Below are positions 31,374 through 63,533 of a DNA stretch of 64,000 nt, in pieces. The stretch comes from a virus. Taxonomy: Duplodnaviria > Heunggongvirae > Uroviricota > Caudoviricetes. Under the pieces are notes generated by a model that made no database searches, was not told the DNA's origin, and was given only the letters and a program-made list of their open reading frames with translations. The stretch is taken from the IMG/VR virus record IMGVR_UViG_3300042894_001948; one strand, written 5' to 3'. A program made the position numbers and the translations under genes. Each line of letters begins with the position of its first letter. The first letter of the stretch is position 1.

Positions 31374-31583
31374 ATGTTGTTAATTTATTTTAAGGTGCTA
31401 GCTGTATTATTATTCTTTCTACTACAGTTTATTTTTGTACTACCGTACTACATGTCATCAAACGAATGGTGGGAATTTACACTAGGTTGGTTTATTTTAT
31501 TAATCATTGATCCGATTGTAATTTACAAATTATGGAAGGATGCAGTTAAACCCGTTGACGAACTTTTTAAGGAGGTAAAATAA
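31374..31583 (+). CDS. Small two-TM membrane protein, translationally coupled (TAATG) to the SPFH gene
   Basis: Contains LAVLLFFLLQFIFVLPYY and FTLGWFILLIIDPIVIY. An AAGGAG RBS for the next gene lies inside its 3' end. Confidence 0.5.
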   Translation: MLLIYFKVLAVLLFFLLQFIFVLPYYMSSNEWWEFTLGWFILLIIDPIVIYKLWKDAVKPVDELFKEVK

Positions 31584-37759: not shown

Positions 37760-37768
37760 TCAAAATCT

Positions 37769-37797
37769 TGACAGGTCAGTTATTGTATAGTATAATT
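37769..37797 (+). promoter_or_regulatory. Consensus sigma70 promoter TTGACA-N17-TATAAT upstream of dnaJ
   Basis: TTGACA at 37769-37774 and TATAAT at 37792-37797. It is embedded in a larger inverted repeat (AGGTCAGTT … AACTGACCT). Confidence 0.65.
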
Positions 37798-37833
37798 ACT
37801 GTACAAACTGACCTTTTTTATGAGAAATTAACC

Positions 37834-38673
37834 ATGACAGACTTTTATTCAAAATTAGGTGTGTCCAAAGACGCATCACAAGACGATATTAAAAAAGCAT
37901 ATCGTTCATTAGCTAACAAGCACCATCCGGACAAAGGTGGAGACCAGGCAACATTTAAAGATATATCAGTAGCATATGATACGTTAAGTGATCCACAAAA
38001 ACGCCAAGAATACGATATGCAACAAAATAGCAATCCATTTGGAGGATTCCACGGCGGAGGACAACATTTCCACTTTGATATGAATGACATGTTTGGCCAA
38101 CATGCACATTTTACAAATATGTTTGGAAATGGATTTAGACAGCAACAACGAAATAGAGATTTAAATCTACAAGTACAAGTAACGCTGGTTGAATCGTACA
38201 ATGGAAAACAAGTTGATGCAACATTTAATATGCCAAGTGGACGACCACAAACCGTAACAATAAACGTTCCGGCTGGTATTGATCACGGTGATACTATTAG
38301 ATATAACGGGTTAGGAGATGATTCTATTCCTAATATACAAAGAGGAAACCTTAATGTAACTGTTCATGTTATTCCTGATCCTAATTTTAGAAGAGAAGGC
38401 AACGATGTATACACAACGTTGCATATTTCACCAATTGAAGCAATGATCGGGTGTATCAAAGACGTTAAGACTATTACAGGCAACACTATTCAAGTAACAA
38501 TTAGACCAGGTGTCGAAACAGGCACAGAGTTTGCTAAAGCAGGTGCCGGTTTTACAAATCTACACAGCAAACAAACTGGAAGATTTGTTACGGTTATTAA
38601 AATTGCTCCGTGTTTAGTAACAGATCCAGCATTAGTAGCACAATTGCAGCAAATACAAAGCCAACTTGCTTGA
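37834..38673 (+). CDS. dnaJ: DnaJ-family co-chaperone (J domain plus C-terminal substrate-binding domain; no zinc-finger repeat seen)
   Basis: J-domain DFYSKLGVSKDASQDDIKKAYRSLANKHHPDKGGD with the HPD tripeptide. The C-terminal beta-rich region resembles DnaJ_C. The start is taken at the ATG at 37834. Confidence 0.8.
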   Translation: MTDFYSKLGVSKDASQDDIKKAYRSLANKHHPDKGGDQATFKDISVAYDTLSDPQKRQEYDMQQNSNPFGGFHGGGQHFHFDMNDMFGQHAHFTNMFGNGFRQQQRNRDLNLQVQVTLVESYNGKQVDATFNMPSGRPQTVTINVPAGIDHGDTIRYNGLGDDSIPNIQRGNLNVTVHVIPDPNFRREGNDVYTTLHISPIEAMIGCIKDVKTITGNTIQVTIRPGVETGTEFAKAGAGFTNLHSKQTGRFVTVIKIAPCLVTDPALVAQLQQIQSQLA

Positions 38674-49934: not shown

Positions 49935-50153
49935 GTGAGCCACAAATCACATAAACTGAGATACAATATGGAAGAATTTGAAATCTGTACGGAATGTATT
50001 CGTCCGGAGATATGTTTATCAAGATGCGAATGCAGTATTATTGTTAGTAGCGAAGAAGCTGTTGCAAGAATACGTGACGAAGAAGCATTTATGTCATGGA
50101 TTAACGAACACGCAACTAATCGCGATATCGGTCGCGACGGCGGTGCAGAATGA
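49935..50153 (+). CDS. Small Cys-rich protein (up to 72 aa; start uncertain)
   Basis: …ICTECIRPEICLSRCECS… cysteine cluster. ATGA overlap with the DNA polymerase start. Confidence 0.4.
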   Translation: MSHKSHKLRYNMEEFEICTECIRPEICLSRCECSIIVSSEEAVARIRDEEAFMSWINEHATNRDIGRDGGAE

Positions 50154-52810
50154 GTTATATAGACGGATACTTTGATCGTAACAACGACATTATTAAAATT
50201 GTAGAAAGAAATTCAAAAGGTGAGCGTGAGTTTAAAGATATTCCTGTTAAACATACGTTATATTATAAAGACCCGAGAGGGAAATATCAATCAATTTACG
50301 GAGATCCCGTATCAAAAATCGTTTGTAGAAATACAAAAGAGTATAGAAAAGAACTTTCTATACACAGCTCAAATAAAACATACGAAGCAGATATTAACCC
50401 AATATTTGCGTGTTTATCAGAAAACTATCTTAATCATGACGCACCTAAACTAAATGTTGCGTTCTTTGATATCGAGGTTGATTTTGATCCTGAACGCGGG
50501 TATGCATCACCTGATGATGCATTTATGCCTATTACTGCTATTGCTGTACACTTACAATGGTTAGAAACACTTATTTGTTTAGCAATACCTCCAAAAACAT
50601 TAACTATGGAACAAGCAGAAGAACAAGTTAAAGAGTTTCCTAATACATTTTTATTTAAAACAGAAGGTGAGCTATTAGACACATTTCTTAACTTAATAGA
50701 AGATGCTGACATTTTAAGTGGCTGGAATAGTGAAGGATTTGATATTCCGTATACAGTTAATCGCGTTACTAAAGTATTATCAAAAGATGATACACGTAGA
50801 TTCTGTTTATTTGATCAATTACCTAAAAGACGTGAATACGAAAAGTACGGTAAAGCATCTGTAACATATGACTTTGTAGGACGAGTACATTTAGATAGTT
50901 TACAACTATATCAAAAGTACACATACGAAGAAAGACATAGTTTTAGACTTGACGCTATTGCAGAATATGAGTTAGGCGACCGTAAAACACAGTATGAAGG
51001 TACACTTGATCAACTGTATAACAACGACTTTAAAACATTTGTTGAATACAACAGACAAGATACTATGCTTTTAGATAGACTTGATAAAAAACTAAAGTTT
51101 ATTGACTTAGCTAACACACTTGCACATGAAAACACTGTATTATTACAAACTACTATGGGCGCAGTTGCTGTAACAGAGCAAGCTATTATTAACGAAGCAC
51201 ATCATAGAGGATTTGTAGTACCAAATAGACGTAGAGAAGAACCAATTCAAGCTGCAGGTGCGTATGTTGCGTATCCTAAAGAAGGAATTCATGACTGGAT
51301 AGGCTCACTAGATATTAACTCACTGTATCCAAGTGCTATTAGAGCACTAAATATGGGTCCGGAGACTATTGTAGGACAGCTAAGACCTATCGTAACTGAC
51401 GATTTTATCTCTTTACAAATTGCAAAAGGCAAATCATTTGCTGCTGCATGGGAAGGGTTGTTTGGTACATTTGAATACACTGCTGTTATGAATGAAGAAA
51501 TTGGTACTGATATTACAGTTGACTGGGAAAACGGTGATACTAATGTTCTTAGTGCTGCGGAAGTATACAGACTAGTGTTTGAAAGTAACCAACCATGGGT
51601 GCTATCGGCAAATGGAACAATCTTTTCAGTTGAGAAAGAAGGTGTTATTCCCGGATTGCTTAAACGATGGTATGCAGAACGTAAAGAAATGCAAGCTAAG
51701 TTAAAAGACGCAATTAATGCAGGTAACAAGATTGAAGAAGAATACTGGGACAAAAGACAGCTAGTTAAGAAGATTAACCTAAATAGTTTATATGGTGCTA
51801 TTCTTAATCCAGGTTGTAGGTTCTTTGATAAACGTATTGGGCAATCAACTACACTAGTAGGACGTCAAATTGCTAAACATATGGCTGCAAAAGTAAATGA
51901 AATTATTACAGGTGATTATAACCATACCGGTAAAGCTATTATTTACGGCGATACTGACTCTTGTTATTTTTCAGCGTATAATACACTTAGAGCTGATATT
52001 GACAAAGGGTTAATTCCGTGGTCTAAAGAGAATATTACACAATTGTATGACCAAATTGGCGACGAAGTTAACGGTACGTTTCAACAGTTTATGTTAGATG
52101 CATTCCACTGTCCTAAATCACGTGGTGAAGTTATTAAAGCAGGACGTGAGATTGTTGGTAGTAAGTCACTATTCATTACTAAAAAGCGTTATGCAGTATT
52201 AGTATATGATAAAGAAGGCAAGCGTAAAGATACTAATGGTAAAAACGGTGAAATTAAAGCTATGGGCTTAGATTTAAAACGTAGTGATACACCGGAGTTT
52301 ATTCAAGACTTCTTATCTAACGTGTTAACTATGGTACTAGCGGGAGAAAGCGAAGATGACGTACTAGATTACATTACTGAATTTAGATTATTATTCAAAG
52401 CTAGACCCGGATGGGAAAAAGGTTCACCTAAACGTGCTAATAACATTACCACTTATGCAAATAAAGAAGATAAGCAAGGTAAAGTCAATATGCCAGGACA
52501 TGTTAGAGCAAGTTTAAATTGGAATACATTAAAACGCATGTATGGTGACAAGTATTCAATGGCGATCACAGATGGTGCAAAAGTTATTGTATGCAAACTT
52601 AAACAAAATCCATTAGGGTTTACAAGTGTTGCATATCCAGTAGATGAATTACGACTGCCGCAATGGTTTAAAGACTTACCATTTGATCATAATGAAATGG
52701 AACAAACGATTATTGATAATAAATTGGATAACTTAATTGGGATTCTTAATTGGAAACTAGTTAATACCTCTGATAAAAACACATTTAACAACTTATTTGA
52801 CTTTGATTAA
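50150..52810 (+). CDS. Family-B DNA polymerase (T4 gp43-like)
   Basis: Exo I FFDIEVD, …NSEGFDIPY… (compare T4 NIEGFDVPY), motif A LDINSLYPSAI, motif B KINLNSLYGAIL, motif C IYGDTDSCYF. 886 aa. Confidence 0.9.
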   Translation: MSYIDGYFDRNNDIIKIVERNSKGEREFKDIPVKHTLYYKDPRGKYQSIYGDPVSKIVCRNTKEYRKELSIHSSNKTYEADINPIFACLSENYLNHDAPKLNVAFFDIEVDFDPERGYASPDDAFMPITAIAVHLQWLETLICLAIPPKTLTMEQAEEQVKEFPNTFLFKTEGELLDTFLNLIEDADILSGWNSEGFDIPYTVNRVTKVLSKDDTRRFCLFDQLPKRREYEKYGKASVTYDFVGRVHLDSLQLYQKYTYEERHSFRLDAIAEYELGDRKTQYEGTLDQLYNNDFKTFVEYNRQDTMLLDRLDKKLKFIDLANTLAHENTVLLQTTMGAVAVTEQAIINEAHHRGFVVPNRRREEPIQAAGAYVAYPKEGIHDWIGSLDINSLYPSAIRALNMGPETIVGQLRPIVTDDFISLQIAKGKSFAAAWEGLFGTFEYTAVMNEEIGTDITVDWENGDTNVLSAAEVYRLVFESNQPWVLSANGTIFSVEKEGVIPGLLKRWYAERKEMQAKLKDAINAGNKIEEEYWDKRQLVKKINLNSLYGAILNPGCRFFDKRIGQSTTLVGRQIAKHMAAKVNEIITGDYNHTGKAIIYGDTDSCYFSAYNTLRADIDKGLIPWSKENITQLYDQIGDEVNGTFQQFMLDAFHCPKSRGEVIKAGREIVGSKSLFITKKRYAVLVYDKEGKRKDTNGKNGEIKAMGLDLKRSDTPEFIQDFLSNVLTMVLAGESEDDVLDYITEFRLLFKARPGWEKGSPKRANNITTYANKEDKQGKVNMPGHVRASLNWNTLKRMYGDKYSMAITDGAKVIVCKLKQNPLGFTSVAYPVDELRLPQWFKDLPFDHNEMEQTIIDNKLDNLIGILNWKLVNTSDKNTFNNLFDFD

Positions 52811-52868: not shown

Positions 52869-53603
52869 ATGAAAGACTTTTTACAAGATTTAGTAAGACA
52901 TACACACACATTAGGCGTATTACCATTAGTTAAAGTTTCTGCAGAAGATACATATGTTGCAATTGATTCAATGGCTGAAGATAGATCAGTGATTCTTAAT
53001 GCAAAAACACATGCACCTGTTAACGGGTTAAACAGCGTATTTGGTATGCCAAACTTAAACAAATTAGACTTACACCTTAAATGTCCAGAATATAAAGACG
53101 ACGCAGTTATTAATATAGTATATGATACACGCGATGGTGAATACGTTCCTACTGGATTACACTTTACCAATGCTACTGGTGACTTCCAAAATGATTACAG
53201 ATTTATGTCTCGTGCAATTATTGAAGCAAAAGTAAAGAAACCTAAAAACAAAGTAGAAATTGTTTACGATATTGAGTTTAAACCTGAATCAGCCAATGTA
53301 CAGCGTTTAAAATTTCAAGCTGCAGCACATACAGAAGAAACTGTATTTCAAGTATCAACTGAAGATAATAACTTAGTTTTTAGCTTTGGCGATGCTAGTA
53401 CACACGCAGGTACATTTGTATTTTACTCGGGCATTGATTATAAATTAAAAAATACATGGTCATGGCCTGTTGCACAAATTCTAAGTATTTTAAATTTAGA
53501 CGGTAATATTACAATGAAAATTGCAGATCAAGGAGCATTACAAATTATTGTCGAAAGCGGTATTGCTGAATACACGTATACATTACCTGCACAAACAAAA
53601 TAA
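52869..53603 (+). CDS. Hypothetical protein (244 aa); possible sliding clamp (gp45-like), based on size and position only
   Basis: Sits immediately downstream of the DNA polymerase, and its length is close to T4 gp45. No diagnostic motif was recognised, so the function is speculative. Confidence 0.5.
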   Translation: MKDFLQDLVRHTHTLGVLPLVKVSAEDTYVAIDSMAEDRSVILNAKTHAPVNGLNSVFGMPNLNKLDLHLKCPEYKDDAVINIVYDTRDGEYVPTGLHFTNATGDFQNDYRFMSRAIIEAKVKKPKNKVEIVYDIEFKPESANVQRLKFQAAAHTEETVFQVSTEDNNLVFSFGDASTHAGTFVFYSGIDYKLKNTWSWPVAQILSILNLDGNITMKIADQGALQIIVESGIAEYTYTLPAQTK

Positions 53604-54054: not shown

Positions 54055-54810
54055 ATGTTTTATGTATATGTATATCTAGATCCACTTTTTCCATCCAACT
54101 GTAGTTACGATAACATTTCCTTTACTTATGTGCCAATATATGTTGGTAAAGGTAAAGGAAATCGATATAAGGATCATATGGTAAAAACATCAAATAAAAT
54201 TTTTGAAAACAAGATACAGTTTTGGAAAACTAATAATATTAAACCAATTGTTATATTTATTGAAACTAATATATCTGAACAAGATGCATGGGATATAGAA
54301 GAACGATTAGTTGTAGAGATTGGAAGATTAGATTTAAAAACGGGACCATTATTAAATTTAACCAACGGTGGGGAAGGATGTTCCGGAATTATACCGTGGA
54401 ACAAAGGTATACAAACTGGTTCATTTTTAACAGCAGACGGTCAATCTAAAATAAGCAATGCTAATAAAGGTAAGGTACTTTCAGATGAAACTAAATCTAA
54501 AATAAGTGTAGCTAATAAAGGTAAACCTAAATCTATTGTGCATTGTAAAAAAATAAGTGAGTCACTGACGGGTAACATTCCGTGGAATAAAGGAAAACAC
54601 ACTGGTCAAGAATCGTGGATGACAGGTAAAGCTCACTCATTAGAATCTCGTAAAAAGATGTCAGATTCTCACAAGGGAAATACGCTCACTGAAGAACAAA
54701 AAACTAAAATTAGTAATAAATTAAAAGGGCGTGTTATATCAGATGAAACACGAATTAAAATGTCAGAATCAAAAAAACAATACTGGGCACAAAAGAAAAA
54801 TGGAACGTAA
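54055..54810 (+). CDS. GIY-YIG homing endonuclease with NUMOD3-like DNA-binding repeats
   Basis: N-terminal FYVYVY…YVGKGKGNRYKDH (GIY…YIG module). Repeated …IPWNKG…TG… / …NKGK..S.ETK.KIS.ANKGK… units downstream. Confidence 0.75.
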   Translation: MFYVYVYLDPLFPSNCSYDNISFTYVPIYVGKGKGNRYKDHMVKTSNKIFENKIQFWKTNNIKPIVIFIETNISEQDAWDIEERLVVEIGRLDLKTGPLLNLTNGGEGCSGIIPWNKGIQTGSFLTADGQSKISNANKGKVLSDETKSKISVANKGKPKSIVHCKKISESLTGNIPWNKGKHTGQESWMTGKAHSLESRKKMSDSHKGNTLTEEQKTKISNKLKGRVISDETRIKMSESKKQYWAQKKNGT

Positions 54811-56500
54811 TTTAACAAATATTCAAACAGGTACAAACGGGCTAAGCCAATATGCCGTATTCCTTCCTGCAACGTCGGGATTTTACTCAACGTTTATTGG
54901 AAGACAACGCTACGGGAATTATGTAGAACCGTCTCGTATACCAACGTCATTTAAATCAGGAGTAGAAAGTTTAAATTACTTAGAACCTGATAAGGGTGAA
55001 TTTTATTACAGATGGTGTTTGTATTCAGCTGGTCACGCAAACTTAGACTTAGACAAAGATGATGAAGCTGAAGATATGTTTCGTAACAGAGATAGAACTA
55101 CAAGTTGGGTATTAGGCGATTCGGGAGGTTTTCAGATTGGTAAAGGTGTTTGGCCAGCTGATTGGAAAGATCCTACTTGTCCTAAAGCACAAAAGAAACG
55201 TGAACAAGTGTTACGGTGGATGGACGAGTTAATGGATTACGGTATGTGTCTTGATATTCCTGCGTGGGTTGCACGTATGCCAGCAGGACGAAGAGCAACT
55301 GGCATTAACAATTACAAGGATGCAGTTAAAGGTACATTTATTAATAATGAATACTTTATCCAAAATCGTACAGGTGCATGTAAATTCTTAAATGTATTGC
55401 AAGGCGAAACACATAAAGATGCCGAAAAATGGTATCAGAGTATGAAAAAGTTTTGCGATACTAAAGTTTACGGTGATAAAGCATTTAACGGCTGGGCAAT
55501 GGGTGGTCAAAACATGTGCGATGCTGATTTAGTACTTAGAAGAATTGTTTCGTTAAAATTTGACAATATGTTACAAGAAGGTCAACATGACTGGATGCAT
55601 TTCTTAGGCACTAGCAAATTAGAATGGGCATGTTTACTAACTATGATACAACGATCGGTCCGTAAACACATTAATCCTAATTTTACTATTAGTTATGATT
55701 GTGCTAGTCCATTCTTAGCTACTGCAAACGGTCAAGTGTATGTTACAACCGAACTTGAAGATAGAGCAAAATGGGTCTATCGAATGGTGCCAAGTGTAGA
55801 TGATAAAAAATACGCAACTGATACTAGGTTATTTAAAGATGTAGTAATCGACGATGGTATTTTTAAAGTGTTTACTCCAAGTCCACTTATTGATCAAGTA
55901 CAAATAAAAGATATATGCATTTATGGAGCAGGTGTTCCTAATTGGACAGAAGTTGATAATGACGGTATTGATCACACTAAGTTGTTTACAGAACCATTAT
56001 ATTTAAATGATCCTAAATACTGGGTTACTATGGGTAACACTAATAAGATTAACAAAGTTGGTAGAACAAGTTGGGACAGTTTTAGTTATGCTATATTGAT
56101 GGGTCATAATGTATGGAGCCACATTAACGCAGTACAACGTGCAAATGAAGCAGTTGATAACAATATTTTGCCATATATGTTAGTTGATGAAAAATTTAAT
56201 CCGGTATTTGTTAGTGATATTATTGATAAAATTATTAGTAGCAAATCTAAACGTGTTGCGTTAAACCTAATAAAAAAATATAGTAAACTATGGATTGATA
56301 TTCCAGGTACACGCGGTAATTGTGGTAAAAAGACAATCAATGCTGATACAAAATTTAACGAATTTTGGACACTTGATGAATTAGAGCCTGATGATTTAGA
56401 CGACGATAATTTTGATCCAACAGCTTATGATTTTTCTGAAGAAGATGAAGACACGTTACATAACCTAGAAGATAGCATTAAAGATGAACAGACAGTATAA
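54800..56500 (+). CDS. dpdA: DpdA-like DNA-guanine transglycosylase (tRNA-guanine transglycosylase superfamily)
   Basis: TGT-family catalytic signature …VLGDSGGFQIGKG… (compare Tgt …TDSGGFQV…). ~567 aa. The start is taken at the ATG at 54800, overlapping the GIY-YIG stop. folE/queE lie nearby. Confidence 0.7.
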   Translation: MERNLTNIQTGTNGLSQYAVFLPATSGFYSTFIGRQRYGNYVEPSRIPTSFKSGVESLNYLEPDKGEFYYRWCLYSAGHANLDLDKDDEAEDMFRNRDRTTSWVLGDSGGFQIGKGVWPADWKDPTCPKAQKKREQVLRWMDELMDYGMCLDIPAWVARMPAGRRATGINNYKDAVKGTFINNEYFIQNRTGACKFLNVLQGETHKDAEKWYQSMKKFCDTKVYGDKAFNGWAMGGQNMCDADLVLRRIVSLKFDNMLQEGQHDWMHFLGTSKLEWACLLTMIQRSVRKHINPNFTISYDCASPFLATANGQVYVTTELEDRAKWVYRMVPSVDDKKYATDTRLFKDVVIDDGIFKVFTPSPLIDQVQIKDICIYGAGVPNWTEVDNDGIDHTKLFTEPLYLNDPKYWVTMGNTNKINKVGRTSWDSFSYAILMGHNVWSHINAVQRANEAVDNNILPYMLVDEKFNPVFVSDIIDKIISSKSKRVALNLIKKYSKLWIDIPGTRGNCGKKTINADTKFNEFWTLDELEPDDLDDDNFDPTAYDFSEEDEDTLHNLEDSIKDEQTV

Positions 56501-57008
56501 TAACATAACTACAAACACTGCTAAGTTTTTTATTGGTAACGAAGTTGAACACACACCAGCATATGGTTTAAAAACATTGTTTGTTGTTGGTAATCAAACT
56601 ATAGAAGCAGTACATTATCGGTTAGATGCTGAAGAAGATGTTACACACATCTTCTTTGGTGCAAACCATAGTTTTAATCCAAATACACCAGGTGCATGGA
56701 TTGACTGGAATCACATAATTGAACACTTTTTAAAATTAGGCAAACAGTGTTCATTAGATATTCCATTTACAGTAGTAAACGATTTTAATAATAAAACTAA
56801 CTTATGTTCATATTCAAATTTTATTCCACAAATTAGAATTCCGGTTGCAAATATTAAAGATTGGAGTTATAATACAATGATAAAATTAGATGACATAGAT
56901 TTTAACGCAACTAATCCCGGGGTGTGGACACATAACTTAAAAGCATTGCAAAATGATGATGTGTTTACTAGCTGGACTGACTATAACAACGACAATATAA
57001 TTAAATGA
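56484..57008 (+). CDS. Hypothetical protein (174 aa) in the dpdA cluster
   Basis: Overlaps the dpdA stop. Operon-like packing. Confidence 0.5.
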   Translation: MNRQYNNITTNTAKFFIGNEVEHTPAYGLKTLFVVGNQTIEAVHYRLDAEEDVTHIFFGANHSFNPNTPGAWIDWNHIIEHFLKLGKQCSLDIPFTVVNDFNNKTNLCSYSNFIPQIRIPVANIKDWSYNTMIKLDDIDFNATNPGVWTHNLKALQNDDVFTSWTDYNNDNIIK

Positions 57009-57364
57009 CAGATAATAAAATGATATGGGTTACTTTTAAGAAAGAAGGAATTCACCATTACCCTGATGCATTAACTAACCCTAACTTAATAGATGTATCT
57101 TTTTTAGGACATCCACATAGACATATATTTCATTTTAAAGTATGGATAGAAGTTACGCATTCTGACAGAGACATTGAGTTTATACAATTTAAACGATGGT
57201 TAGAATCATTGTATATTAGTTCAACATTATCATTAGATAACAAAAGTTGTGAAATGATAAGTAATGATTTATCATTAACAATTAGAAATGAATACCCTAA
57301 TAGGGCAATTTGGATTGAAGTTTCTGAAGACGGCGAAAACGGATCATTTATTAAGTATTTGTAA
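57005..57364 (+). CDS. Short QueD/PTPS-like T-fold protein (119 aa), a second paralog
   Basis: …FKKEGIHHYPD…FLGHPHRHIFHFKVWIEV…IEFIQFKRWLE… is collinear with the QueD core (FEAAHRLP…LHGHSFMVRLEI…IIDFAELKAAF). Confidence 0.45.
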   Translation: MTDNKMIWVTFKKEGIHHYPDALTNPNLIDVSFLGHPHRHIFHFKVWIEVTHSDRDIEFIQFKRWLESLYISSTLSLDNKSCEMISNDLSLTIRNEYPNRAIWIEVSEDGENGSFIKYL

Positions 57365-57365
57365 T

Positions 57366-57578
57366 ATGAAACATTATGTCTCAAAAGCTATGCTTGAACA
57401 AAAAATTAATCGTTTACGCCAAGAGATATCAGTCTTTGAAATCCAACATATGAAATCAGCTAACCCTAAACTTAAAAACGTAGTACACATTAAACAATTA
57501 AGAAATCAACTGTACGATTTGAAGGAACAACTGCTAATTCGTACTAATCAAACTATATTAAAAAACGGAAGAAAATAA
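57366..57578 (+). CDS. Hypothetical small protein (~70 aa)
   Basis: ATG at 57366 directly after the previous stop. Basic, helical. Confidence 0.4.
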   Translation: MKHYVSKAMLEQKINRLRQEISVFEIQHMKSANPKLKNVVHIKQLRNQLYDLKEQLLIRTNQTILKNGRK

Positions 57579-57579
57579 A

Positions 57580-57834
57580 ATGGCTAAAAATTACAAAACA
57601 TTCTCATACTTTGAATCACGTCCAGATGTTGTTAAAATCTTTGAAGATTTAGAAGCATTCCATGACTTTTGTAGAATTGAGTTACGTAAATTTGATCCAG
57701 CAGATTTATATCGCAAAGATAGTAAATCATACGGTTCGTACATAGCAAGTAAACGTCCTCGTAAACCTTATCAAGGTAATAAACCTTGGCCAAACGGTGT
57801 TAGACCAAAACATTATAATAATAAAAAAGCCTAA
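57580..57834 (+). CDS. Hypothetical small basic protein (84 aa)
   Basis: ATAAAATGG junction. A terminator hairpin follows. Confidence 0.45.
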   Translation: MAKNYKTFSYFESRPDVVKIFEDLEAFHDFCRIELRKFDPADLYRKDSKSYGSYIASKRPRKPYQGNKPWPNGVRPKHYNNKKA

Positions 57835-57852
57835 CAGTTATTTTTCAACTAT

Positions 57853-57881
57853 GAAAGCTCCGTACGGAGCTTTCACTCTTT
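57853..57881 (+). terminator. Rho-independent terminator (weak T-tract)
   Basis: GAAAGCTCCGtaCGGAGCTTTCactcttt. Confidence 0.5.
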
Positions 57882-57891
57882 AAGGAATTTT

Positions 57892-58986
57892 ATGAAACCT
57901 ACTATTTGGATATTTCCTGTAGAACCGCTAGATACTAGATATACTAGACAATGGCACACTCATATCCCTAAACAACTACGTCAGCACATCAAAGACAAAT
58001 ATAACATAGTTCAAATAGACGGAGAACAAAATGCAACTGACGTAACTCCGGGTGCATTTTTAAACTTTGTTGATACTAATGTATGGAAAAGCTCACAGCT
58101 TGTTGGGTTTTTAAAAAACTATCACAGAACTACGCCAAACGATCATTTCTTGTTTACTGATGCATGGAATCCTACTATTGTACAATTAAAGTACATTAAT
58201 GACTTAGAACATTTAAATTGGACATTTCATGGCCTATGGCACGCGGGTAATTATGACAAACATGACTTTTTAGGAAACATTACAGGTGCATGGGTTAACC
58301 TTGCAGAAAAAGCAATGTTTACATCATACACACATAATTATTTTGCTACAGAATTTCATGTAAGAATGTTTTTTGACAATATAGTACAATACGGTTATCC
58401 AAGTGAAAATCCATGGTATGACGAAGACTGGGATGAAGTGTATGACGACAAGTCTATTATAAAAACAGGTTGGCCTATGGAGTATTTAGAAGATACATTA
58501 GCTCCATATAAAGGTGCAGAAAAACGTAATTTAATATTATTTCCACATCGAATTGCTCCGGAAAAACAAGTTGATATTTTTAGAGCGTTGGCTCATCAAT
58601 TACCACAATACGATTTTGTAGTGTGCCAAGATGAAAAGCTAACTAAAGACGAATATCATAAATTACTAAGTGAAGCAAAGATCGTATTTAGTGCTAACTT
58701 ACAAGAAACATTAGGCATAAGTTGTTACGAAGGCGCATTGCTTGGTGCTATACCTATGGTTCCTGATAGATTAAGTTACAAAGAAATGTATATGTATCAT
58801 TTTAAATACCCGTCAGAATGGACTGAAAGTTATGCAGATTACGAAGCTCACAGTTATGATTTATGTAATAAAATTATTCATTATATAGAGAACTATGATA
58901 GTATAGCGCATTATGTACAAACACAAACAGAATATTTAACAAAAGAGTTTTTTAACGCAGAGAAATTATATGATAGATTTAAATAA
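57892..58986 (+). CDS. GT-B fold glycosyltransferase (GT4/GT1-like, EX7E motif)
   Basis: TAAGGA RBS. C-terminal …ANLQETLGISCYEGALLGAIPMVPD… carries the E-x7-E motif (E-TLGISCY-E) with a following G..P.V, characteristic of retaining GT4-type enzymes. Confidence 0.5.
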   Translation: MKPTIWIFPVEPLDTRYTRQWHTHIPKQLRQHIKDKYNIVQIDGEQNATDVTPGAFLNFVDTNVWKSSQLVGFLKNYHRTTPNDHFLFTDAWNPTIVQLKYINDLEHLNWTFHGLWHAGNYDKHDFLGNITGAWVNLAEKAMFTSYTHNYFATEFHVRMFFDNIVQYGYPSENPWYDEDWDEVYDDKSIIKTGWPMEYLEDTLAPYKGAEKRNLILFPHRIAPEKQVDIFRALAHQLPQYDFVVCQDEKLTKDEYHKLLSEAKIVFSANLQETLGISCYEGALLGAIPMVPDRLSYKEMYMYHFKYPSEWTESYADYEAHSYDLCNKIIHYIENYDSIAHYVQTQTEYLTKEFFNAEKLYDRFK

Positions 58987-59398
58987 AGATACAATTACAT
59001 TTACTATGGACGGAGATGCACGTTATAGTATACCAGCGTTTGATGCAAGTTCATTATCATCGTACACTGCTTCAAACATAATGAGCGGAACAGCAGCAAG
59101 TGATACTATCACTATTACAGGTAGTAATGGCATATACGGACATAATACTATATCAGGAATTGGTTCCACTAACTTAACAAGTAACTATTACGCATATAAC
59201 GGAATAGGAGCAAATACTTGGTCTAATGCCAATTGGGCTGCTGCAAATGGAAAACCATTTGTAGATGCATTTCCAGATTGGAATGCATTTAGAACACTAT
59301 GCGAAGATTATCCGGGTTTAGAAAAAGCATACGAAAATTTAAAAACAATTTATACAATTTGCTATGAAGATAGCATATTACCAAAGGATGACGAATGA
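58970..59398 (+). CDS. Hypothetical protein (142 aa)
   Basis: Overlaps both neighbours (operon-like). Confidence 0.45.
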   Translation: MIDLNKDTITFTMDGDARYSIPAFDASSLSSYTASNIMSGTAASDTITITGSNGIYGHNTISGIGSTNLTSNYYAYNGIGANTWSNANWAAANGKPFVDAFPDWNAFRTLCEDYPGLEKAYENLKTIYTICYEDSILPKDDE

Positions 59399-59925
59399 AA
59401 GTAGTAAAATATAATTGGGCACAGTTAGAAGGTGCTGCATTAGAACTTGCACGACAAATACATGCGTCTAAATGGAAACCAGATTACATTGTTGGAATTA
59501 CACGCGGGGGACTTATTCCCGCAAACTTACTTAGTCAGTATCTCGGAGTTAAGATGTTAACATTACACGTTAGTTTACGTGATCATCCGGATGATAACGA
59601 ACACAATGCATGGATGGCATGTGATGCATTTGGAATTACTGATGACGAATTAGCAAGTACTGGTCAAGCTAAAAACATTTTAATCGTTGATGATATAAAT
59701 GATTCTGGTGCAACACTTGAATGGATTAAAGCTGATTGGCAATCATTATGTTTACCAGATGATATTCGGTGGAAACATGATGTATGGCATAAGAATGTAA
59801 GATTTGCTACAATATTTGATAATAGTGCTAGTAATGCACATGTTGATTATTGTGCTGAAGAATTTGATAAACGAGACGATCCAATTTGGATCGACTTTCC
59901 TTGGGAAAACTACTGGAAGAAATAA
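59395..59925 (+). CDS. Type I phosphoribosyltransferase (purine/HGPRT-like)
   Basis: PRPP-binding motif …NILIVDDINDSGATLEW… and an N-terminal …DYIVGITRGGLIPANLLSQYLGV… hood region. 176 aa. Confidence 0.7.
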   Translation: MKVVKYNWAQLEGAALELARQIHASKWKPDYIVGITRGGLIPANLLSQYLGVKMLTLHVSLRDHPDDNEHNAWMACDAFGITDDELASTGQAKNILIVDDINDSGATLEWIKADWQSLCLPDDIRWKHDVWHKNVRFATIFDNSASNAHVDYCAEEFDKRDDPIWIDFPWENYWKK

Positions 59926-60257
59926 TGGATCTACATTCAATAGCTAACAAACACGGTATACGAAGCATAGACGTTGAACAATATTATGCTGCAGGTGATA
60001 ATTATTCGTTAGATTGGTCAAGATCAAACCTGCCAAGCGAACGAGCAAACATTACAAGGTCGTTAACTGTTAAAATACACGAGAGAGATTTTATAACGTT
60101 AATTGACAAAGCTGAAAAATGGGAAGAATGGAATAAAAAATACTATGAAGATATGTATGTTAGAGATTCTAATCCAACTGTAAAAGCAGCATACGAAAAA
60201 TATCAAATGTTTTTAGAAATAGCAAGATCGGAAGTAAAAAATGACAGATTTAACTAA
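59926..60257 (+). CDS. Hypothetical protein (~110 aa)
   Basis: ATG at 59926 overlapping the PRTase stop (ATAATGG). Confidence 0.45.
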
Positions 60258-60402
60258 AGAAGAATTACAAGAAAAAATTGCACAAGTAAAAAGTGATATG
60301 GCAAAACATAGAGATTCTAGTAATCCTCGAATGTTATTAGGGCTTGCTCAATATTTAGAATATTTAGAAGACGAATTAAAAACCTTGACAAAGAACTCTT
60401 AA
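60241..60402 (+). CDS. Small coiled-coil ORF (53 aa)
   Basis: AAAAATG overlap with the previous gene. Followed by a hairpin. Short, so the call is tentative. Confidence 0.3.
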   Translation: MTDLTKEELQEKIAQVKSDMAKHRDSSNPRMLLGLAQYLEYLEDELKTLTKNS

Positions 60403-60413
60403 CTAATAAATAA

Positions 60414-60445
60414 CAATGGGCAATCATGATAGGAATGCCCATTTT
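60414..60445 (+). terminator. Hairpin with a short T-tract (possible terminator)
   Basis: AATGGGCAatcatgataggaaTGCCCATTtt. Confidence 0.4.
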
Positions 60446-60479
60446 AAAAATCAATTATGTAAGGAGTAAGGAATCTTAT

Positions 60480-61340
60480 ATGTCATCTAATAACAATATA
60501 TATTATGTCTATGTATACTTAGATCCAAGAACACCAGGTCAATATGTTTCTACATTTTGTTCACTGTTATTTAAACCATTTTATGTAGGTTACGGTAAAA
60601 ATAATCGATTATTTGATCATCTTAAAGAAGCACGGCCTACACGAAAATATAAAAATTCACATAAATTAAACACAATTAGAGAATTAACTAGATTGCAGTT
60701 ATTACCAATAATTTTTAAAGTAGCCACTAATCTATCTGAAGAAGATGCAGTAGAATTAGAGACTAAATTAATTTTAGAATTTAGAAACTATAAAATAACA
60801 AATATTCGTGAGAGAGGGTGGGTGTCCCATCAAACTGCAAGGAGTAACCCTGTTCGTAACTTACAACCGCACATTGGGCTAAGAACAGACACAATTACAG
60901 TATACAATACTAACATCAAAGAACATACTATTATTAAGAAATCTAAATTATTAGATTTACAAGAGGCTAATAGTCATCATGATATTATTGTTACAACCGG
61001 TATTAAAACAAGAATTGGTGCTAACACTACTATGGCAAGAGTAGGTACTAATAATGGCATGTATGGTAGATCTGCAACTAAAGGGTATAAATGGTGTATA
61101 ATTAACAATGTTGAATATTTTTTATCTAAAAAAGATGTTGACTTTTACTTAGAAAACAATTATAATATTACATATGGTAGATTAAATAAACCTTCTAAAC
61201 AGAGAATAATTTTTGAAGGTGAACTTAAAGGAAAATACCGAACTAATCAAGATATTAGCGATAATCCTACACAATGCTATCAAATTGGATTAATTTGGAA
61301 ACATGATAAACCTACTTTTAAAAATCACAAACAAATATAA
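60480..61340 (+). CDS. GIY-YIG homing endonuclease (second copy)
   Basis: AAGGAG RBS. N-terminal IYYVYVYLDPR…PFYVGYGKNNRLFDH… (GIY-YIG variant). The C-terminus is basic with repeat-like helices. Confidence 0.65.
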   Translation: MSSNNNIYYVYVYLDPRTPGQYVSTFCSLLFKPFYVGYGKNNRLFDHLKEARPTRKYKNSHKLNTIRELTRLQLLPIIFKVATNLSEEDAVELETKLILEFRNYKITNIRERGWVSHQTARSNPVRNLQPHIGLRTDTITVYNTNIKEHTIIKKSKLLDLQEANSHHDIIVTTGIKTRIGANTTMARVGTNNGMYGRSATKGYKWCIINNVEYFLSKKDVDFYLENNYNITYGRLNKPSKQRIIFEGELKGKYRTNQDISDNPTQCYQIGLIWKHDKPTFKNHKQI

Positions 61341-61354
61341 CAGGAATTAAAATA

Positions 61355-62032
61355 ATGAGCTTTGATAAAACTAAAACAGATCCAGCGTTAGGTAAACGAG
61401 TAAGAGAATATTTAATTAGTAAAGGAGTTGAAACTCCAATTAATAATACGGCCCTAGTAGTTGATAATAAAACAAAAATTGACATTATTGAAAACGCATT
61501 TACAACAATATGGTCAACATTAGGAATGGACTTAACAGATGATAGTTTAGCAGAAACACCAAATCGAATGGCTAAAATGTACACAAATGAAATATATTTT
61601 GGACTTAAAGAAGAAAACTTTCCAAAGTGTACTACTATTAAAAACAAAATGGGCTACAATGAAATTGTTGTGGAAAGAAATGTAAACATACAAAGTAATT
61701 GTGAACATCACGGAGTTGTAATTGACGGCTTTGCAACAGTTGGTTATATTCCAAACGAGGTTGTACTTGGACTAAGCAAAATTAATCGTGTAGTTGAATA
61801 CTTTGCAAAACGTCCGCAAGTACAAGAAAGATTAACCGAACAAGTATTCCATGCATTAGAATACATATTAGGCACTGATAATATTGCAGTAGTTATTGAT
61901 GCAAAACATTATTGTGTTGCTGCAAGAGGTGTAGAAGATACTGGCAGTTCTACTGTTACAAGTAAGTTAGGCGGCGCATTTAAAAACGATCCAACTACTC
62001 GTGCAGAATTTATGAGTATTGTAAACAAATAA
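61355..62032 (+). CDS. folE: GTP cyclohydrolase I (FolE)
   Basis: …NIQSNCEHHGVVIDG… catalytic CEHH motif. …SKINRVVEYFAKRPQVQERLT… conserved C-terminal region. Confidence 0.85.
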   Translation: MSFDKTKTDPALGKRVREYLISKGVETPINNTALVVDNKTKIDIIENAFTTIWSTLGMDLTDDSLAETPNRMAKMYTNEIYFGLKEENFPKCTTIKNKMGYNEIVVERNVNIQSNCEHHGVVIDGFATVGYIPNEVVLGLSKINRVVEYFAKRPQVQERLTEQVFHALEYILGTDNIAVVIDAKHYCVAARGVEDTGSSTVTSKLGGAFKNDPTTRAEFMSIVNK

Positions 62033-62040
62033 GGAGAGTT

Positions 62041-62490
62041 ATGAAAGACTTAAAACTACAAATTCCAGCAGAAGGCATTATGAAAACAAGTGACTGGGGT
62101 AACAGTAAAATGTATAAAATTCAATGCACATGCGGCAACGACGATGACAATATTGAGTTTATGGTTGAGGCAGATGATCTTAATATGATCACTGTAACTA
62201 CATTTACAACACAAAAAACTGCGTACTGGGATAGACCATTTGATGTTTCGAACACATACAAAATTAAAAATTCGTTTTTAAGCAGTATTGCATACGAAAC
62301 ATTGAGCTTTCTTAACGGGTTTCAGCATCGTATTAAAATGACATGGAATTTGTGGTTTAATGGTTATCTTAAATATCAGCAGTCTACTATAATGTCCGAG
62401 CAACAGACATTAAACTATGCAGAAACATTGAAAGCTGCTATTAAAGATTGCAAAGAATTTCATAAAGAGGCTTACAATGAGAAAAACTAA
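62041..62490 (+). CDS. Hypothetical protein (149 aa)
   Basis: AAGGAGAG RBS. No recognisable motif. Confidence 0.5.
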   Translation: MKDLKLQIPAEGIMKTSDWGNSKMYKIQCTCGNDDDNIEFMVEADDLNMITVTTFTTQKTAYWDRPFDVSNTYKIKNSFLSSIAYETLSFLNGFQHRIKMTWNLWFNGYLKYQQSTIMSEQQTLNYAETLKAAIKDCKEFHKEAYNEKN

Positions 62491-62726: not shown

Positions 62727-63533
62727 GTGACTGACTATAAACAACATATTTTAAAACATTCTTTAAATCCAAACAATCATAATATAACCCGCTATGTAAC
62801 ATTTATTGAGCATTGTAAAACCTTAGTACTTAATGACAAATACACCGAAACTCATCATATCGTTCCTAAGTCATTTGGCGGATTAGATAATATTAACAAC
62901 TTAATTACGTTAAGTGCAAGGCATCATTATATAGCACATTTATTATTAGCAAAAGGCACAAATAGTCCTAAAATGATTAAAGCATTACACTTAATGGTGT
63001 ATTCTAAAACTGGTGATGTATGCCGATCTTATAAAATAACCAATAGAGTGTATGCATACCTTAGAGAATCGCATGCAAAGGTTGTAAGTAATTATAGTAA
63101 AGGCACAGTGGTTGCAAAAAATTTGAATACTTTAGAAATTAAACGAATTCCTAAAGAACTTTTTGACAAATATAACGGTATTATATATGTTGCATTAGCA
63201 AAGGGTAGAAAAGACAGTATAGCAACTGTTAACAAAAAAAGAGAAGCTAGTAAACGACCACGCATAGTTTGTCAACAATCTATAGTTAGAAGCCAAACTG
63301 CATCTAAATACTCTTACTGTACACCTAAAGGATTTTGTAACACTAGTAAAGAACTACTAACAGTTTATCCAACATTTACTAAAAATACATTGACTATTAT
63401 TAATAATGATGTTATTATAACACATAAATTTGCGTCAATTCATAATGAGTTTTCAACGTTTGTTGGAAAATCTTTTAAAGAATTTGGTATAACTAAATTA
63501 ATCAAGGATAATACATGTCACACATTAAAATAA
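62727..63533 (+). CDS. HNH homing endonuclease
   Basis: …TETHHIVPKSFGGLDNINNLITLSARHHYIAH… (H-N-H core with flanking histidines). Confidence 0.7.
   Translation: MTDYKQHILKHSLNPNNHNITRYVTFIEHCKTLVLNDKYTETHHIVPKSFGGLDNINNLITLSARHHYIAHLLLAKGTNSPKMIKALHLMVYSKTGDVCRSYKITNRVYAYLRESHAKVVSNYSKGTVVAKNLNTLEIKRIPKELFDKYNGIIYVALAKGRKDSIATVNKKREASKRPRIVCQQSIVRSQTASKYSYCTPKGFCNTSKELLTVYPTFTKNTLTIINNDVIITHKFASIHNEFSTFVGKSFKEFGITKLIKDNTCHTLK

Follow-up and report, generated by a model that had tools for sequence, protein, structure and literature searches.

The phage studied here, an uncultured jumbo phage with a genome of about 310 kb and a distant relative of the Pseudomonas phage PA5oct (Wroclawvirus), carries a 7-deazaguanine gene cluster whose novel element is a GT-B glycosyltransferase (GT) of a new family with an intact E-x7-E motif. 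The neighborhood of the GT in other phages and in bacteria supports its membership in the deazaguanine module. The best reading, put forward here tentatively, is that of a DNA-modification module in which DpdA inserts 7-deazaguanine, which the GT then glycosylates. The conserved GT accompanies the base-exchanging enzyme in many phages as well as in some bacteria, from which a sugar-bearing DNA base is predicted; to our knowledge, no glycosylated purine has been found in any DNA, nor do we know of any GT-carrying phage with established chemistry.

Gene content of the module

The module lies at 54.8-64 kb of the window (the whole 64,000-nucleotide stretch analyzed) as a co-oriented cluster on the plus strand comprising DpdA, orf174, a T-fold protein, small ORFs, the GT, a phosphoribosyltransferase (PRTase), FolE and QueE (Table 1). 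The ORFs named in a preliminary description of this DNA were all recovered at the reported positions and on the plus strand. They overlap by 4-40 nt or abut as it had stated, except for a gap of 57 nt before the GT, and the small unknowns number six instead of four (orf174, the 70-aa ORF, orf84, orf142, orf123/118 and orf53). Between the PRTase and folE there is, in addition to the genes listed there, a GIY-YIG homing endonuclease. Of 80 IMG/VR loci retrieved with the GT, nearly all keep this gene order, and therefore the arrangement is not due to chance.

TABLE 1. Position and features of the module genes and of the inserted endonucleases in the window.
Feature	Position	Strand	Characteristics
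QueD, canonical (CPH4 synthase), 176 aa	22889..23419	-	PF01242 PTPS, E 7.8e-26
DpdA-like DNA-guanine transglycosylase (putative), divergent TGT superfamily, 566 aa	54800..56500	+	catalytic motifs, identity to PA5oct
orf174, conserved acidic protein	56484..57008	+	many invariant polar residues; fold resembles QueE partial barrel
DpdL, QueD-paralog T-fold, putative 7-carboxy-7-deazaguanine decarboxylase, 119 aa	57005..57364	+	LxxxHRHxF motif
70-aa ORF, predicted coiled-coil-like	57366..57578	+	called as gene on L100 and L006
orf84, small basic protein	57580..57834	+	pI 9.8; almost always directly upstream of GT
GT-B glycosyltransferase, GT4-like, new family, presumably retaining, 364 aa	57892..58986	+	E-x7-E, FPHR and PEKQ motifs
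orf142	58970..59398	+	acidic low-complexity N-terminal part, conserved C-terminal ~45 aa; 26 loci
Type I purine phosphoribosyltransferase, closest to XGPRT/Gpt, 176 aa	59395..59925	+	PF00156, E 7e-17
orf123 (118 aa with the start used on sister contigs)	59886..60257	+	close relatives only
orf53, small protein	60241..60402	+	subset of clade, 14 loci
GIY-YIG homing endonuclease, insertion in module	60426..61340	+	PF22945 LEM-3_GIY-YIG on identical L100 gene
FolE, GTP cyclohydrolase I	61355..62032	+	PF01227, 1.8e-58
orf149, conserved protein between FolE and QueE	62041..62490	+	28 loci, always just upstream of QueE
HNH-type homing endonuclease, insertion ahead of queE	62727..63533	+	weak NCBIfam IscB/HNH match, 1e-4
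QueE (7-carboxy-7-deazaguanine synthase), N-terminal 161 aa	63515..64000	+	tblastn with PA5oct QueE, 2e-17

FolE, QueD and QueE would, judging from gene content, convert GTP into 7-carboxy-7-deazaguanine (CDG). The canonical QueD, detected by tblastn with QueD of ACP17 (1e-7) and of Escherichia coli (3e-6), is encoded 31 kb away from the remaining module genes, and the preliminary description was thus right in calling the T-fold protein of the cluster a second QueD-like one. The queE gene extends past the window end and continues on the sister contig L100; its fragment shares 50-75% identity with the full-length QueE of 67 loci. QueC was found neither in the window nor in 88 related loci, so that the pathway would stop before preQ0.

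The small T-fold protein, regarded as unusual in the preliminary description, corresponds to DpdL, a QueD paralog already published with the same motif and proposed as CDG decarboxylase (Hutinet et al., 2023, PMC10516641). Residues 34-42 (LGHPHRHIF; L34-GHP-H38-R-H40-I-F42) reproduce the published signature exactly, the His/Glu ligands common to QueD are kept, and the protein matches phrog_17812 (9e-36), shares 58% identity with ACP17 DpdL and its family HMM matches phiST DpdL (4e-21). According to the published proposal, this putative enzyme would convert CDG into 7-deazaguanine; DpdL and DpdA of phiST or ACP17 produced no 2'-deoxy-7-deazaguanine (dDG) in E. coli (Hutinet et al., 2023, PMC10516641).

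The DpdA-like protein has no Pfam, NCBIfam or PDB sequence match, and its assignment, a probable one, is based on motifs together with weak profile-profile matches. In the alignment, the two motifs that hold the catalytic Asp residues of E. coli Tgt, TDSGGFQ and FDCVMP, have GDSGGFQ (aa 129-135) and YDCASP (aa 322-327) as their counterparts, and hhalign gave P=0.002 against Tgt, 8e-4 against phiST DpdA3 and 0.007 against ACP17-type DpdA. The start is most likely the ATG at 54800, as in the gene call of L100, versus the GTG at 54731 of the mechanical ORF. The conserved Asp motifs suggest that this enzyme would swap genomic G for 7-deazaguanine after replication.

The GT is an acidic protein (pI 5.5) in which E272-x7-E280 (nt 58705-58731) is invariant across 40 homologs, and with a confident GT-B model it looks catalytic. 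Its closest folds are GT4-type enzymes, whose acceptors are sugar phosphates, malate or thiols and not nucleobases or DNA.

The PRTase carries the motif ILIVDDINDSGATL at aa 95-108 and matches the NCBIfam xanthine PRTase (4e-16, yet far below the cutoff) and, in the PDB, 1vdm (5e-9) and XGPRT (1e-6). Aligned with E. coli Gpt, it retains the DDxxD PRPP loop and the stacking Trp, and Lys115 is replaced by Asn. This enzyme had also been taken as unusual, but homologs occur in PA5oct, BUCT-ZZ01, phiST, immuto_2-6A and the CP220 group, the last three being the described phage groups in which complete replacement of G has been proven, and often lie beside FolE. The text of the pathway paper does not mention it (Hutinet et al., 2023, PMC10516641).

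Among the small proteins, orf174, which lacks an Fe-S cysteine motif despite its QueE-like fold, and the basic orf84, found upstream of the GT in 79 loci and without family matches in Pfam, NCBIfam and phrog profile searches, would be conserved partners in the module. The 70-aa ORF is conserved only in the closest relatives (94% identical, L005/L006), orf142 is recognized mostly by its C-terminal part and weakly matches an 86-aa ORF of PA5oct (E 0.0025), and orf149 had no family match in an NCBIfam search. Both homing endonucleases are outside the pathway: the GIY-YIG gene is absent or different at the equivalent position of other loci and the HNH gene is absent in L005.

Linkage of the glycosyltransferase in phages and bacteria

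Co-conservation of the GT with dpdA, a check suggested by the preliminary description, is observed in Dpd/Que clusters of at least seven phage lineages, mostly adjoining a long DpdA, as well as in bacterial DpdA islands. The GT lies between DpdA and DpdL in ACP17, adjoins DpdA in BUDD and BCSR5, and directly follows DpdL in BUCT-ZZ01 (order DpdA, DpdL, GT); in Phosso it adjoins DpdL, with no DpdA found within 9 kb of the GT. In a DpdL-centered sample of 80 IMG/VR loci, the GT accompanied window-type DpdA in 33 of 36 loci, ACP17-type DpdA in all five and the short phiST-type DpdA3 in none of 16; this absence indicates that the GT tracks the type of DpdA and does not serve a general phage need.

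In genomes of Alphaproteobacteria the GT ortholog always adjoins a DpdA-like gene and, in the seven loci examined, a transporter of the Vut_1/YhhQ family, which is of the deazapurine-precursor type, lies between them in a three-gene island devoid of QueE, FolE and PTPS. These islands mostly lack DpdL, and hence the glycosylated base may differ between systems. Further sugar-enzyme genes accompany the GT, namely a PIG-L-like deacetylase in the BCSR5 and BUDD clusters, a second GT in BUCT-ZZ01 and an SDR "epimerase" fragment in PA5oct. GT orthologs were looked for in LPS or NAD contexts lacking dpdA and none was found; the one gene in a sugar-metabolism context, that of PhiXhv-15, is a remote GT4 paralog with 24% identity. 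The assignment of the GT to the module stands as first described. Its position beside DpdA or DpdL in independently ordered lineages and in a bacterial island with a transporter, otherwise hard to explain, suggests a shared substrate.

Proposed chemistry and competing explanations

As its gene linkage suggests, the GT would use a nucleotide sugar to glycosylate deazaguanine, either as free base or in DNA, yielding a glycosylated G analogue. The most plausible site, in our view, is the exocyclic 2-amino group, since it is common to all 7-deazaguanines. The pathway genes without QueC, the DpdA motifs, synteny with PA5oct, DpdL homology, the linkage of the GT in phages and bacteria, the extra sugar enzymes, the catalytic appearance of the GT, the precedent of HuiG and the behavior of PA5oct DNA argue for this reading; against it, 7-deazaguanine has no hydroxyl or obvious O-glycosylation handle, and N- or C-glycosylation must be assumed. 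The acidity of the GT, the acceptors of its closest folds, the negative DpdL plus DpdA experiment in E. coli and the weak scores of DpdA also count against it. Sugar decoration and a nucleotide-level route, the two options raised in the preliminary description, are both possible and have precedents in HuiG and TubE/ToyH of deazapurine natural products. The XGPRT-like PRTase would act at the base/nucleotide interface in one of two possible roles, recycling guanine expelled by DpdA to GMP and GTP for FolE, or ribophosphorylating a deazapurine like TubE and ToyH.

The second role is central to a pre-replicative route, which we consider unlikely, in which the PRTase would join CDG or 7-deazaguanine to PRPP, kinases and ribonucleotide reductase would supply the deoxy-triphosphate to PolB, DpdL would decarboxylate the base or nucleotide, DpdA would clear residual G and the GT would have a soluble intermediate or DNA as its acceptor. 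The PRTase homologs of the three complete-replacement groups are consistent with this route, as are their co-occurrence in phiST and immuto with MazG-type NTP pyrophosphatases and NMP-kinase-like genes, the AAA_28 nucleoside-kinase-like gene of the BCSR5 cluster, the resemblance to the tubercidin cluster (no QueC, CDG, a PF00156 PRTase and a decarboxylase), the report of ADG nucleoside in the cytoplasm of cells infected by CP220 and the failure of DpdL plus DpdA alone to make dDG in E. coli. However, the PRTase matches guanine/xanthine PRTases best, is missing within 10 kb in about 40% of the window-clade loci and from the ACP17 cluster, abuts FolE and not DpdL or QueE in seven of nine compact operons, and is paired with FolE in Brevundimonas phage StAshley without any Que/Dpd genes. 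Moreover, neither MazG nor a dedicated kinase was seen in the scanned part of the window, and the PA5oct restriction data have been read as motif-specific (GA/GG), which fits a transglycosylase.

Tight PRTase-FolE adjacency in many lineages, including StAshley, together with the XGPRT-like character of the enzyme and its conserved PRPP-loop Asp and stacking Trp, would also suit a still more doubtful explanation, in which the product is plain dDG, a possible endpoint of DpdL clusters as phiST shows, the PRTase salvages released guanine through GMP and GTP to FolE, pulling the exchange forward, and the co-regulated GT has another target (base, protein or soluble metabolite). The recurrence of the GT beside or between DpdA and DpdL in otherwise differently ordered lineages, the bacterial island and the lack of the GT in phiST-type loci speak against it. 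Very improbable is a glycosylated pterin made by FolE, PTPS-like T-folds, SDR and GT, comparable to cyanobacterial biopterin glucoside and involving no DNA base, for which the SDR fragment of PA5oct could be adduced, but the match of the GT to BGluT is no closer than that to dozens of other GT4 enzymes, QueE and the TGT-like gene, always in the cluster, play no part in making pterin glycosides, and the bacterial islands pair the GT with DpdA and the transporter, without FolE or PTPS.

Comparison with known systems

The glucosylation of hydroxymethylcytosine in T4 depends on alpha- and beta-glucosyltransferases that belong to other GT families than the enzyme of the window. Its acceptor also differs from the one proposed for the module, being the hydroxymethyl group of a pyrimidine that is made as a nucleotide. 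Closer in gene content are the tubercidin/toyocamycin clusters, which encode a PF00156 PRTase (TubE, ToyH; the likeness is at the level of PF00156) with FolE, QueD and QueE; TubE joins CDG to PRPP, and the tubercidin cluster likewise has a decarboxylase but no QueC, and works on CDG. This decarboxylase is a UbiD-family enzyme and not a T-fold, the pathway continues with GMP reductase and phosphatase steps to a free nucleoside antibiotic, and no TGT-like enzyme is encoded.

In the huimycin/dapiramicin clusters a GT gene lies beside 7-deazaguanine genes and the deazapurine base is the acceptor, a likeness of proposed function and of context; HuiG glycosylates the base with UDP-GlcNAc, beside which the PIG-L-type GlcNAc-deacetylase-like gene of the BCSR5 and BUDD clusters can be set. 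Unlike the module, these clusters make an actinomycete secondary metabolite from preQ0, include QueC and an O-methyltransferase, and have no nucleic-acid insertion enzyme.

The DpdA3-DpdL system of Cellulophaga phage phiST (Hutinet et al., 2023, PMC10516641), with dDG at every G, shares with the window FolE, QueD and QueE without QueC, DpdL with its signature, a divergent TGT-like DpdA and a small XGPRT-like PRTase, encoded elsewhere in the phiST genome. It differs in its short DpdA3 (259 aa), in lacking the GT and orf174, and in the MazG and AAA_18 kinase-like genes beside DpdL, whereas the DpdA of the window, 566 aa long, belongs to another subfamily and is accompanied by the GT, orf174 and orf84.

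PA5oct DNA contains a modified G, resists cleavage at several G-containing restriction sites and is a target of hypermodification-sensing END nucleases. Its cluster (EST35_0316-0322, annotated as hypothetical except for QueE) has a 172-aa SDR/epimerase-like ORF instead of orf174 and orf84, and does not include FolE and QueD. It belongs to the replication module and has in common with the window the order PolB, clamp, DpdA-like, GT, DpdL, PRTase and QueE, and identities between both phages reach 38% for DpdA (EST35_0316), 41% for the GT, 51% for DpdL and 27% for the PRTase.

Host phage and layout of the modification module

The window is AT-rich (31-42% GC), and a comparison with 50,697 deposited phages gave no close relative; Pseudomonas jumbo phages of the PA5oct family come nearest at the nucleotide level, matching at 67% across 8% of the query. 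Proteins of the window are present on metagenome contigs of 266-358 kb and the sequence was therefore assigned to an uncultured jumbo phage. Every gene from 50.1 kb to the end of the window lies on the plus strand, and the canonical QueD is encoded far from the rest of the cluster. An E. coli QueC query gave no match in the 64 kb window (of a genome of ~310 kb) or in 88 related loci. The preliminary description of the cluster was accurate overall, except for its count of small ORFs and its dpdA start.

Coordinates of the replication/modification module and of other features of the window
Feature	Coordinates	Strand	Remarks
Giant ORF	125-7714	-	2529 aa
Giant ORF	8851-22131	-	4426 aa
Canonical QueD	22889-23419	-	PF01242, 8e-26
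Clamp-loader subunit	30392-31312		
SPFH/Band-7 protein	31583-32434		
DnaJ	37768-38673		PF00226/PF01556
ClpB/Hsp104-type AAA+ chaperone	38732-41017		full length; PF07724, PF10431
PolB	50150-52810	+	
Sliding clamp	52869-53603	+	followed by a 136-aa ORF
GIY-YIG/NUMOD homing endonuclease	54055-54810	+	
DpdA-like protein	54800 (or 54731)-56500	+	566-589 aa
orf174	56484-57008	+	
DpdL	57005-57364	+	119-aa T-fold
70-aa ORF	57366-57578	+	
orf84	57580-57834	+	
Glycosyltransferase (GT)	57892-58986	+	364 aa
orf142	58970-59398	+	
Phosphoribosyltransferase (PRTase)	59395-59925	+	176 aa; followed by orf123 and orf53
Second GIY-YIG endonuclease	60426-61340	+	between orf53 and FolE
FolE	61355-62032	+	PF01227, 2e-58
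orf149	62041-62490	+	followed by orf79
HNH endonuclease	62727-63533	+	
QueE	63515, past window end	+	start only

Three homing endonuclease genes (two GIY-YIG/NUMOD and one HNH) interrupt the module between genes. In relatives these elements occupy other positions or lie within PolB, which is split by an intein or endonuclease in PA5oct and in one related locus (L005). The two giant ORFs occupy the first third of the window, and DnaJ is encoded beside the ClpB/Hsp104-type chaperone.

Enzymes encoded by the cluster

DpdA is a TGT-like DNA-guanine transglycosylase, and the window protein was accepted as a probable divergent member of the TGT superfamily. Its GDSGGFQ (aa 129-135) and YDCASP (aa 322-327) motifs are invariant across 13 homologs and are superposed by hhalign on both catalytic Asp motifs of E. 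coli Tgt (TDSGGFQ, FDCVMP), while LQG, GWAMGG and HFLGT align with their Tgt equivalents in the profile-profile alignment (P=0.002 against E. coli Tgt, 8e-4 against phiST DpdA3 and 0.007 against the DpdA type of ACP17, BUDD and BUCT-ZZ01, which itself matches Tgt with 88% probability). None of the 13 members matched the TGT profile PF01702 in Pfam, even at E 10, the window protein had no match in NCBIfam or PHROGs, and neither the single sequence nor the 13-member profile matched the PDB. The HMMs of the window-type, phiST DpdA3 and ACP17-type proteins do not cross-hit, and the window protein is 38% identical to its PA5oct counterpart; in these comparisons it falls into a long subfamily of its own, common to PA5oct and to the bacterial islands described below. 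The isoelectric point was uninformative as a clue to DNA binding, DpdA and the GT being equally acidic.

The 119-aa T-fold protein was correctly recognized in the preliminary description as a QueD-like paralog, but it belongs to an already known family. By definition DpdL is a QueD paralog with LxxxHRHxF in place of CxxxHGH; it was found in phages that encode DpdA, FolE, QueD and QueE without QueC and was proposed as the CDG (7-carboxy-7-deazaguanine) decarboxylase on the route to 2'-deoxy-7-deazaguanine (dDG); heterologous expression of DpdL plus DpdA in E. coli failed (Hutinet 2023, PMC10516641). The window protein carries LGHPHRHIF at aa 34-42, a signature kept in 11 DpdL sequences including that of phiST and lying in the same columns as C..HGH of E. 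coli QueD, and it retains the His/Glu ligands shared with QueD. It matches DpdL of ACP17 (tblastn 3e-39, 58% identity) and the founding member of phiST, CGPG_00067 (4e-9, 34% identity), the family HMM finds phiST DpdL at 4e-21, and the gene context is the same (DpdA, FolE, QueD and QueE in the window, and no QueC there or in the 88 loci). PDB sequence and profile searches returned noise alone. By motif and homology the protein is thus assigned to DpdL, with a putative decarboxylase role. In Vibrio phage Bakedbeans (L105, 9200-10381, ~390 aa) and Chryseobacterium phage MA9V-3 (L106, 9428-10312, ~290 aa) DpdL forms the C-terminal part of longer proteins, fused behind an uncharacterized N-terminal domain.

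At the sequence level the GT represents a new family, GT4-like and presumably retaining, whose donor and acceptor are suggested by context. The AlphaFold model is confident (pLDDT 91) and shows a GT-B fold with two Rossmann-like domains. The E-x7-E motif of the C-terminal domain keeps E272 and E280 without exception in 40 homologs and also in the orthologs of PA5oct, ACP17, Phosso and bacteria. R220 and K225 are invariant residues too. The window protein stays below the gathering score of Pfam Glycos_transf_1 (15.9 bits, cutoff 26.4), which divergent orthologs exceed (BUDD 45.7, BCSR5 42.0, BUCT-ZZ01 26.5 and 28.3); the family profile had no PDB sequence match.

The PRTase is a genuine type I purine enzyme, nearest to the xanthine/guanine PRTases. 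It matches PF00156 (61.7 bits, cutoff 26.3), its PRPP loop VDDINDSGAT aligns with IDDLVDTGGT of Gpt, and the stacking Trp of Gpt is kept, with Asn at the position of Lys115; the score against the xanthine/guanine PRTase equivalog NF006613 is 59 bits, well under the cutoff of 138. PRTases of the window clade share a conserved insertion of ~20 aa behind the PRPP loop.

Pfam, PHROGs and NCBIfam scans of orf174, orf84, orf142, orf123 and orf149 returned nothing useful. The acidic, conserved orf174 has many invariant polar residues. It was considered as a QueE derivative and rejected: the match is one of fold alone, with neither the CxxxCxxC [4Fe-4S] motif of the radical-SAM QueE family nor sequence similarity to QueE. 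An orf174 homolog does occur in the ACP17 cluster; none was found in PA5oct, BUDD, BCSR5, BUCT-ZZ01 or Phosso, where proteins in the equivalent position are unrelated. Conserved in 28 loci immediately before QueE, and without a family match, orf149 may be a further pathway component.

Linkage of the glycosyltransferase to DpdA in phages and bacteria

More than 8000 metagenomic sequences are homologous to the GT, the top 120 with identities of 56% or higher and on contigs of up to 393 kb, and at least 587 GT loci were found in IMG/VR. Among the 80 best of these loci, every contig of sufficient length keeps the order PolB, clamp, DpdA, orf174, DpdL, orf84, GT, (orf142), PRTase, FolE, orf149, QueE; the PRTase is detectable in roughly 60% of the 80. 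In cultured phages the ortholog always lies within a Dpd/Que cluster: DpdA-GT-DpdL-x-SDR-PRTase-QueE in the PA5oct family, QueD-FolE-orf174 homolog-DpdA-GT-DpdL-QueE in Acidovorax phage ACP17, GT-DpdA, clustered with DpdL, QueE and FolE, in Xanthomonas phages BUDD/X1 and Burkholderia phage BCSR5, QueE-PRTase-x-QueD-FolE-GT4-DpdA-DpdL-GT in Synechococcus phage BUCT-ZZ01, and DpdL-GT-x-FolE, with no DpdA found nearby, in Sinorhizobium phage Phosso.

The BUDD (L090, 2885-4458) and BCSR5 (L099, 9357-12105) clusters additionally encode a PAPS-reductase-like ATP-pyrophosphatase, a PIG-L/LmbE-like deacetylase (APHVDDE motif in BCSR5), a protein of 143-155 aa without assigned function and, in BCSR5, an AAA_28 kinase-like protein. 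These genes suggest either a GlcNAc transfer followed by deacetylation or an amide-forming step.

A further set of 80 IMG/VR loci was chosen on purpose around DpdL and ordered by resemblance to phiST. In this set the GT accompanies window-type DpdA in 33 of 36 loci and ACP17-type DpdA in 5 of 5, and is absent from all 16 loci with the short phiST-type DpdA3. The cultured DpdL phages of the phiST group, MA9V-3, RHph_I1_18, Ahp1, D479 and Bakedbeans also have no GT nearby. The GT thus follows the long DpdA types as an optional extension and does not belong to the core steps of deazaguanine synthesis. An LPS or envelope setting was not seen for the orthologs; only a remote paralog in PhiXhv-15 (24% identity) adjoins GlmS and a BshB-like deacetylase, and a generic envelope/LPS role was rejected for the orthologs themselves.

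A scan of 185,579 bacterial genomes recovered GT orthologs (41-45% identity) in Alphaproteobacteria, namely Pelagibacterium, Devosia, Ochrobactrum, Azospirillum, Methylobacterium and a Rhizobiales isolate. Each adjoins a window-type DpdA-like gene that retains DSGGYQ and FDSA, and a small Vut_1/YhhQ-family membrane protein is encoded between the two in 7 of 7 loci examined (two of them above the Pfam gathering threshold); the three genes lie at about 7.0-10.1 kb in each of L199-L205. YhhQ is a preQ0/preQ1 importer. No FolE or QueE was found in the bacterial loci, and DpdL only in that of Methylobacterium. A serine recombinase is located close by in two Pelagibacterium loci, in Devosia and in a further locus (L208); proteins of 331 and 311 aa, uncharacterized, are encoded upstream of the island in the two Pelagibacterium loci only. 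Bacterial and phage gene content together therefore make DpdA and the GT the conserved core pair, the deazapurine being, to judge from the genes present, made by the phage or, in bacteria, imported. The DpdA-YhhQ-GT arrangement has the appearance of a mobile island for DNA modification or defence in bacteria, apparently undescribed.

A predicted sugar-bearing base and its relation to known pathways

As read from sequence, the module encodes CDG enzymes without the preQ0 step, DpdL, a TGT-like enzyme that keeps its catalytic residues, a GT-B enzyme that looks catalytically intact and a purine-type PRTase. From the published proposal, DpdL would make 7-deazaguanine and DpdA would exchange it into DNA; from its linkage, the GT may place a sugar onto the deazapurine or onto the modified DNA. 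Sugar decoration is plausible because HuiG of huimycin biosynthesis glycosylates a 7-deazapurine base with UDP-GlcNAc and because some phage clusters contain extra sugar-type genes (a GlcNAc-deacetylase-like gene, a second GT or an SDR fragment). 7-Deazaguanine offers no obvious acceptor group. Since the bacterial islands mostly have no DpdL, the acceptor position is likely common to all 7-deazaguanines, and the 2-amino group is favoured by analogy with the structure of huimycin.

As a tentative proposal, to which we give somewhat less than even chances, long-type DpdA and the GT would act together as a two-enzyme unit that writes glycosylated 7-deazaguanine into DNA. If true, the unit would be very widespread, occurring in thousands of jumbo-phage contigs, in PA5oct, ACP17, BUDD, BCSR5 and BUCT-ZZ01 and in mobile islands of Alphaproteobacteria that take up the base by means of a YhhQ-like transporter; Phosso has the GT and DpdL, but no DpdA near them. 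Eight 7-deazaguanine DNA bases have been described, none with a sugar, and such a base would be the first sugar-bearing purine known to us in any genome. We found no description in the literature of a glycosylated deazaguanine, or of a PRTase or GT together with DpdA. The co-variation, seen in phages and bacteria alike, of the GT with a single class of DNA transglycosylase predicts a new hypermodified base, a sharp prediction that is testable in cultured phages such as ACP17 and PA5oct. The latter is a phage-therapy candidate with a modified G of undefined structure already known in its DNA; the authors of that study suspected modified G from QueE and a PTPS gene and left the structure unidentified. 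A sugar-bearing base of the predicted kind would be relevant to evasion of restriction and CRISPR, to recognition by type IV and END nucleases, to sequencing of jumbo-phage DNA and to enzymatic tools for DNA glycosylation.

The preliminary observation is confirmed, and its interpretation finds partial support. By these homology and co-conservation searches, the new and strongly linked part of the cluster is the GT, with orf174 and orf84. The PRTase, first regarded as unusual, is instead a widespread though unremarked companion of complete-replacement clusters. Using phiST PRTase (L093, 3908-4336) as query, homologs were found in Flavobacterium phage immuto_2-6A (L189, 5980-6375, between QueE and FolE in a cluster with MazG, DpdA and a kinase), in the Campylobacter CP220/CP21/F379 group (F379: L188, 6001-6414), in BUCT-ZZ01 and in Brevundimonas phages, and a DpdL-specific role was accordingly rejected. 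Complete replacement of G has been experimentally proven in exactly three phage groups, those of phiST (dDG), immuto_2-6A (fdPreQ1) and CP220 (dADG), and a small XGPRT-like PRTase is common to all three. Neither a phosphoribosyltransferase nor a glycosyltransferase is mentioned in the main text of Hutinet 2023 (PMC10516641). The presence of PRTases in all complete-replacement deazaguanine phages, together with the failed expression of DpdL and DpdA in E. coli, suggests that the published pathway has missing steps. A PRTase-FolE fusion in Vibrio phage 033B was also considered and rejected, Pfam finding no PRTase domain; this 300-aa FolE (L190, 2821-3723) has an N-terminal extension of ~115 aa that tblastn aligned weakly with the C-terminal half of phiST PRTase.

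The evidence is divided between two roles for the PRTase. One is guanine salvage and GTP supply, consistent with the gene abutting FolE in 7 of 9 compact phiST-type operons and with a FolE-PRTase pair in Brevundimonas phage StAshley, which has no detectable QueC/D/E, DpdA, DpdL or GT; this pair (L094, 7313-8468) lies within an RNR/dNMP-kinase module. The other, in line with the nucleotide-level route raised in the preliminary description, would be a pathway of the tubercidin/toyocamycin kind, to which the co-occurrence of the PRTase with MazG and NMP-kinase-like genes and the ADG nucleoside reported in CP220-infected cells also point. The analogy is with the tubercidin cluster, which, like the phage set, uses CDG, lacks QueC and encodes a PF00156 PRTase and a decarboxylase.
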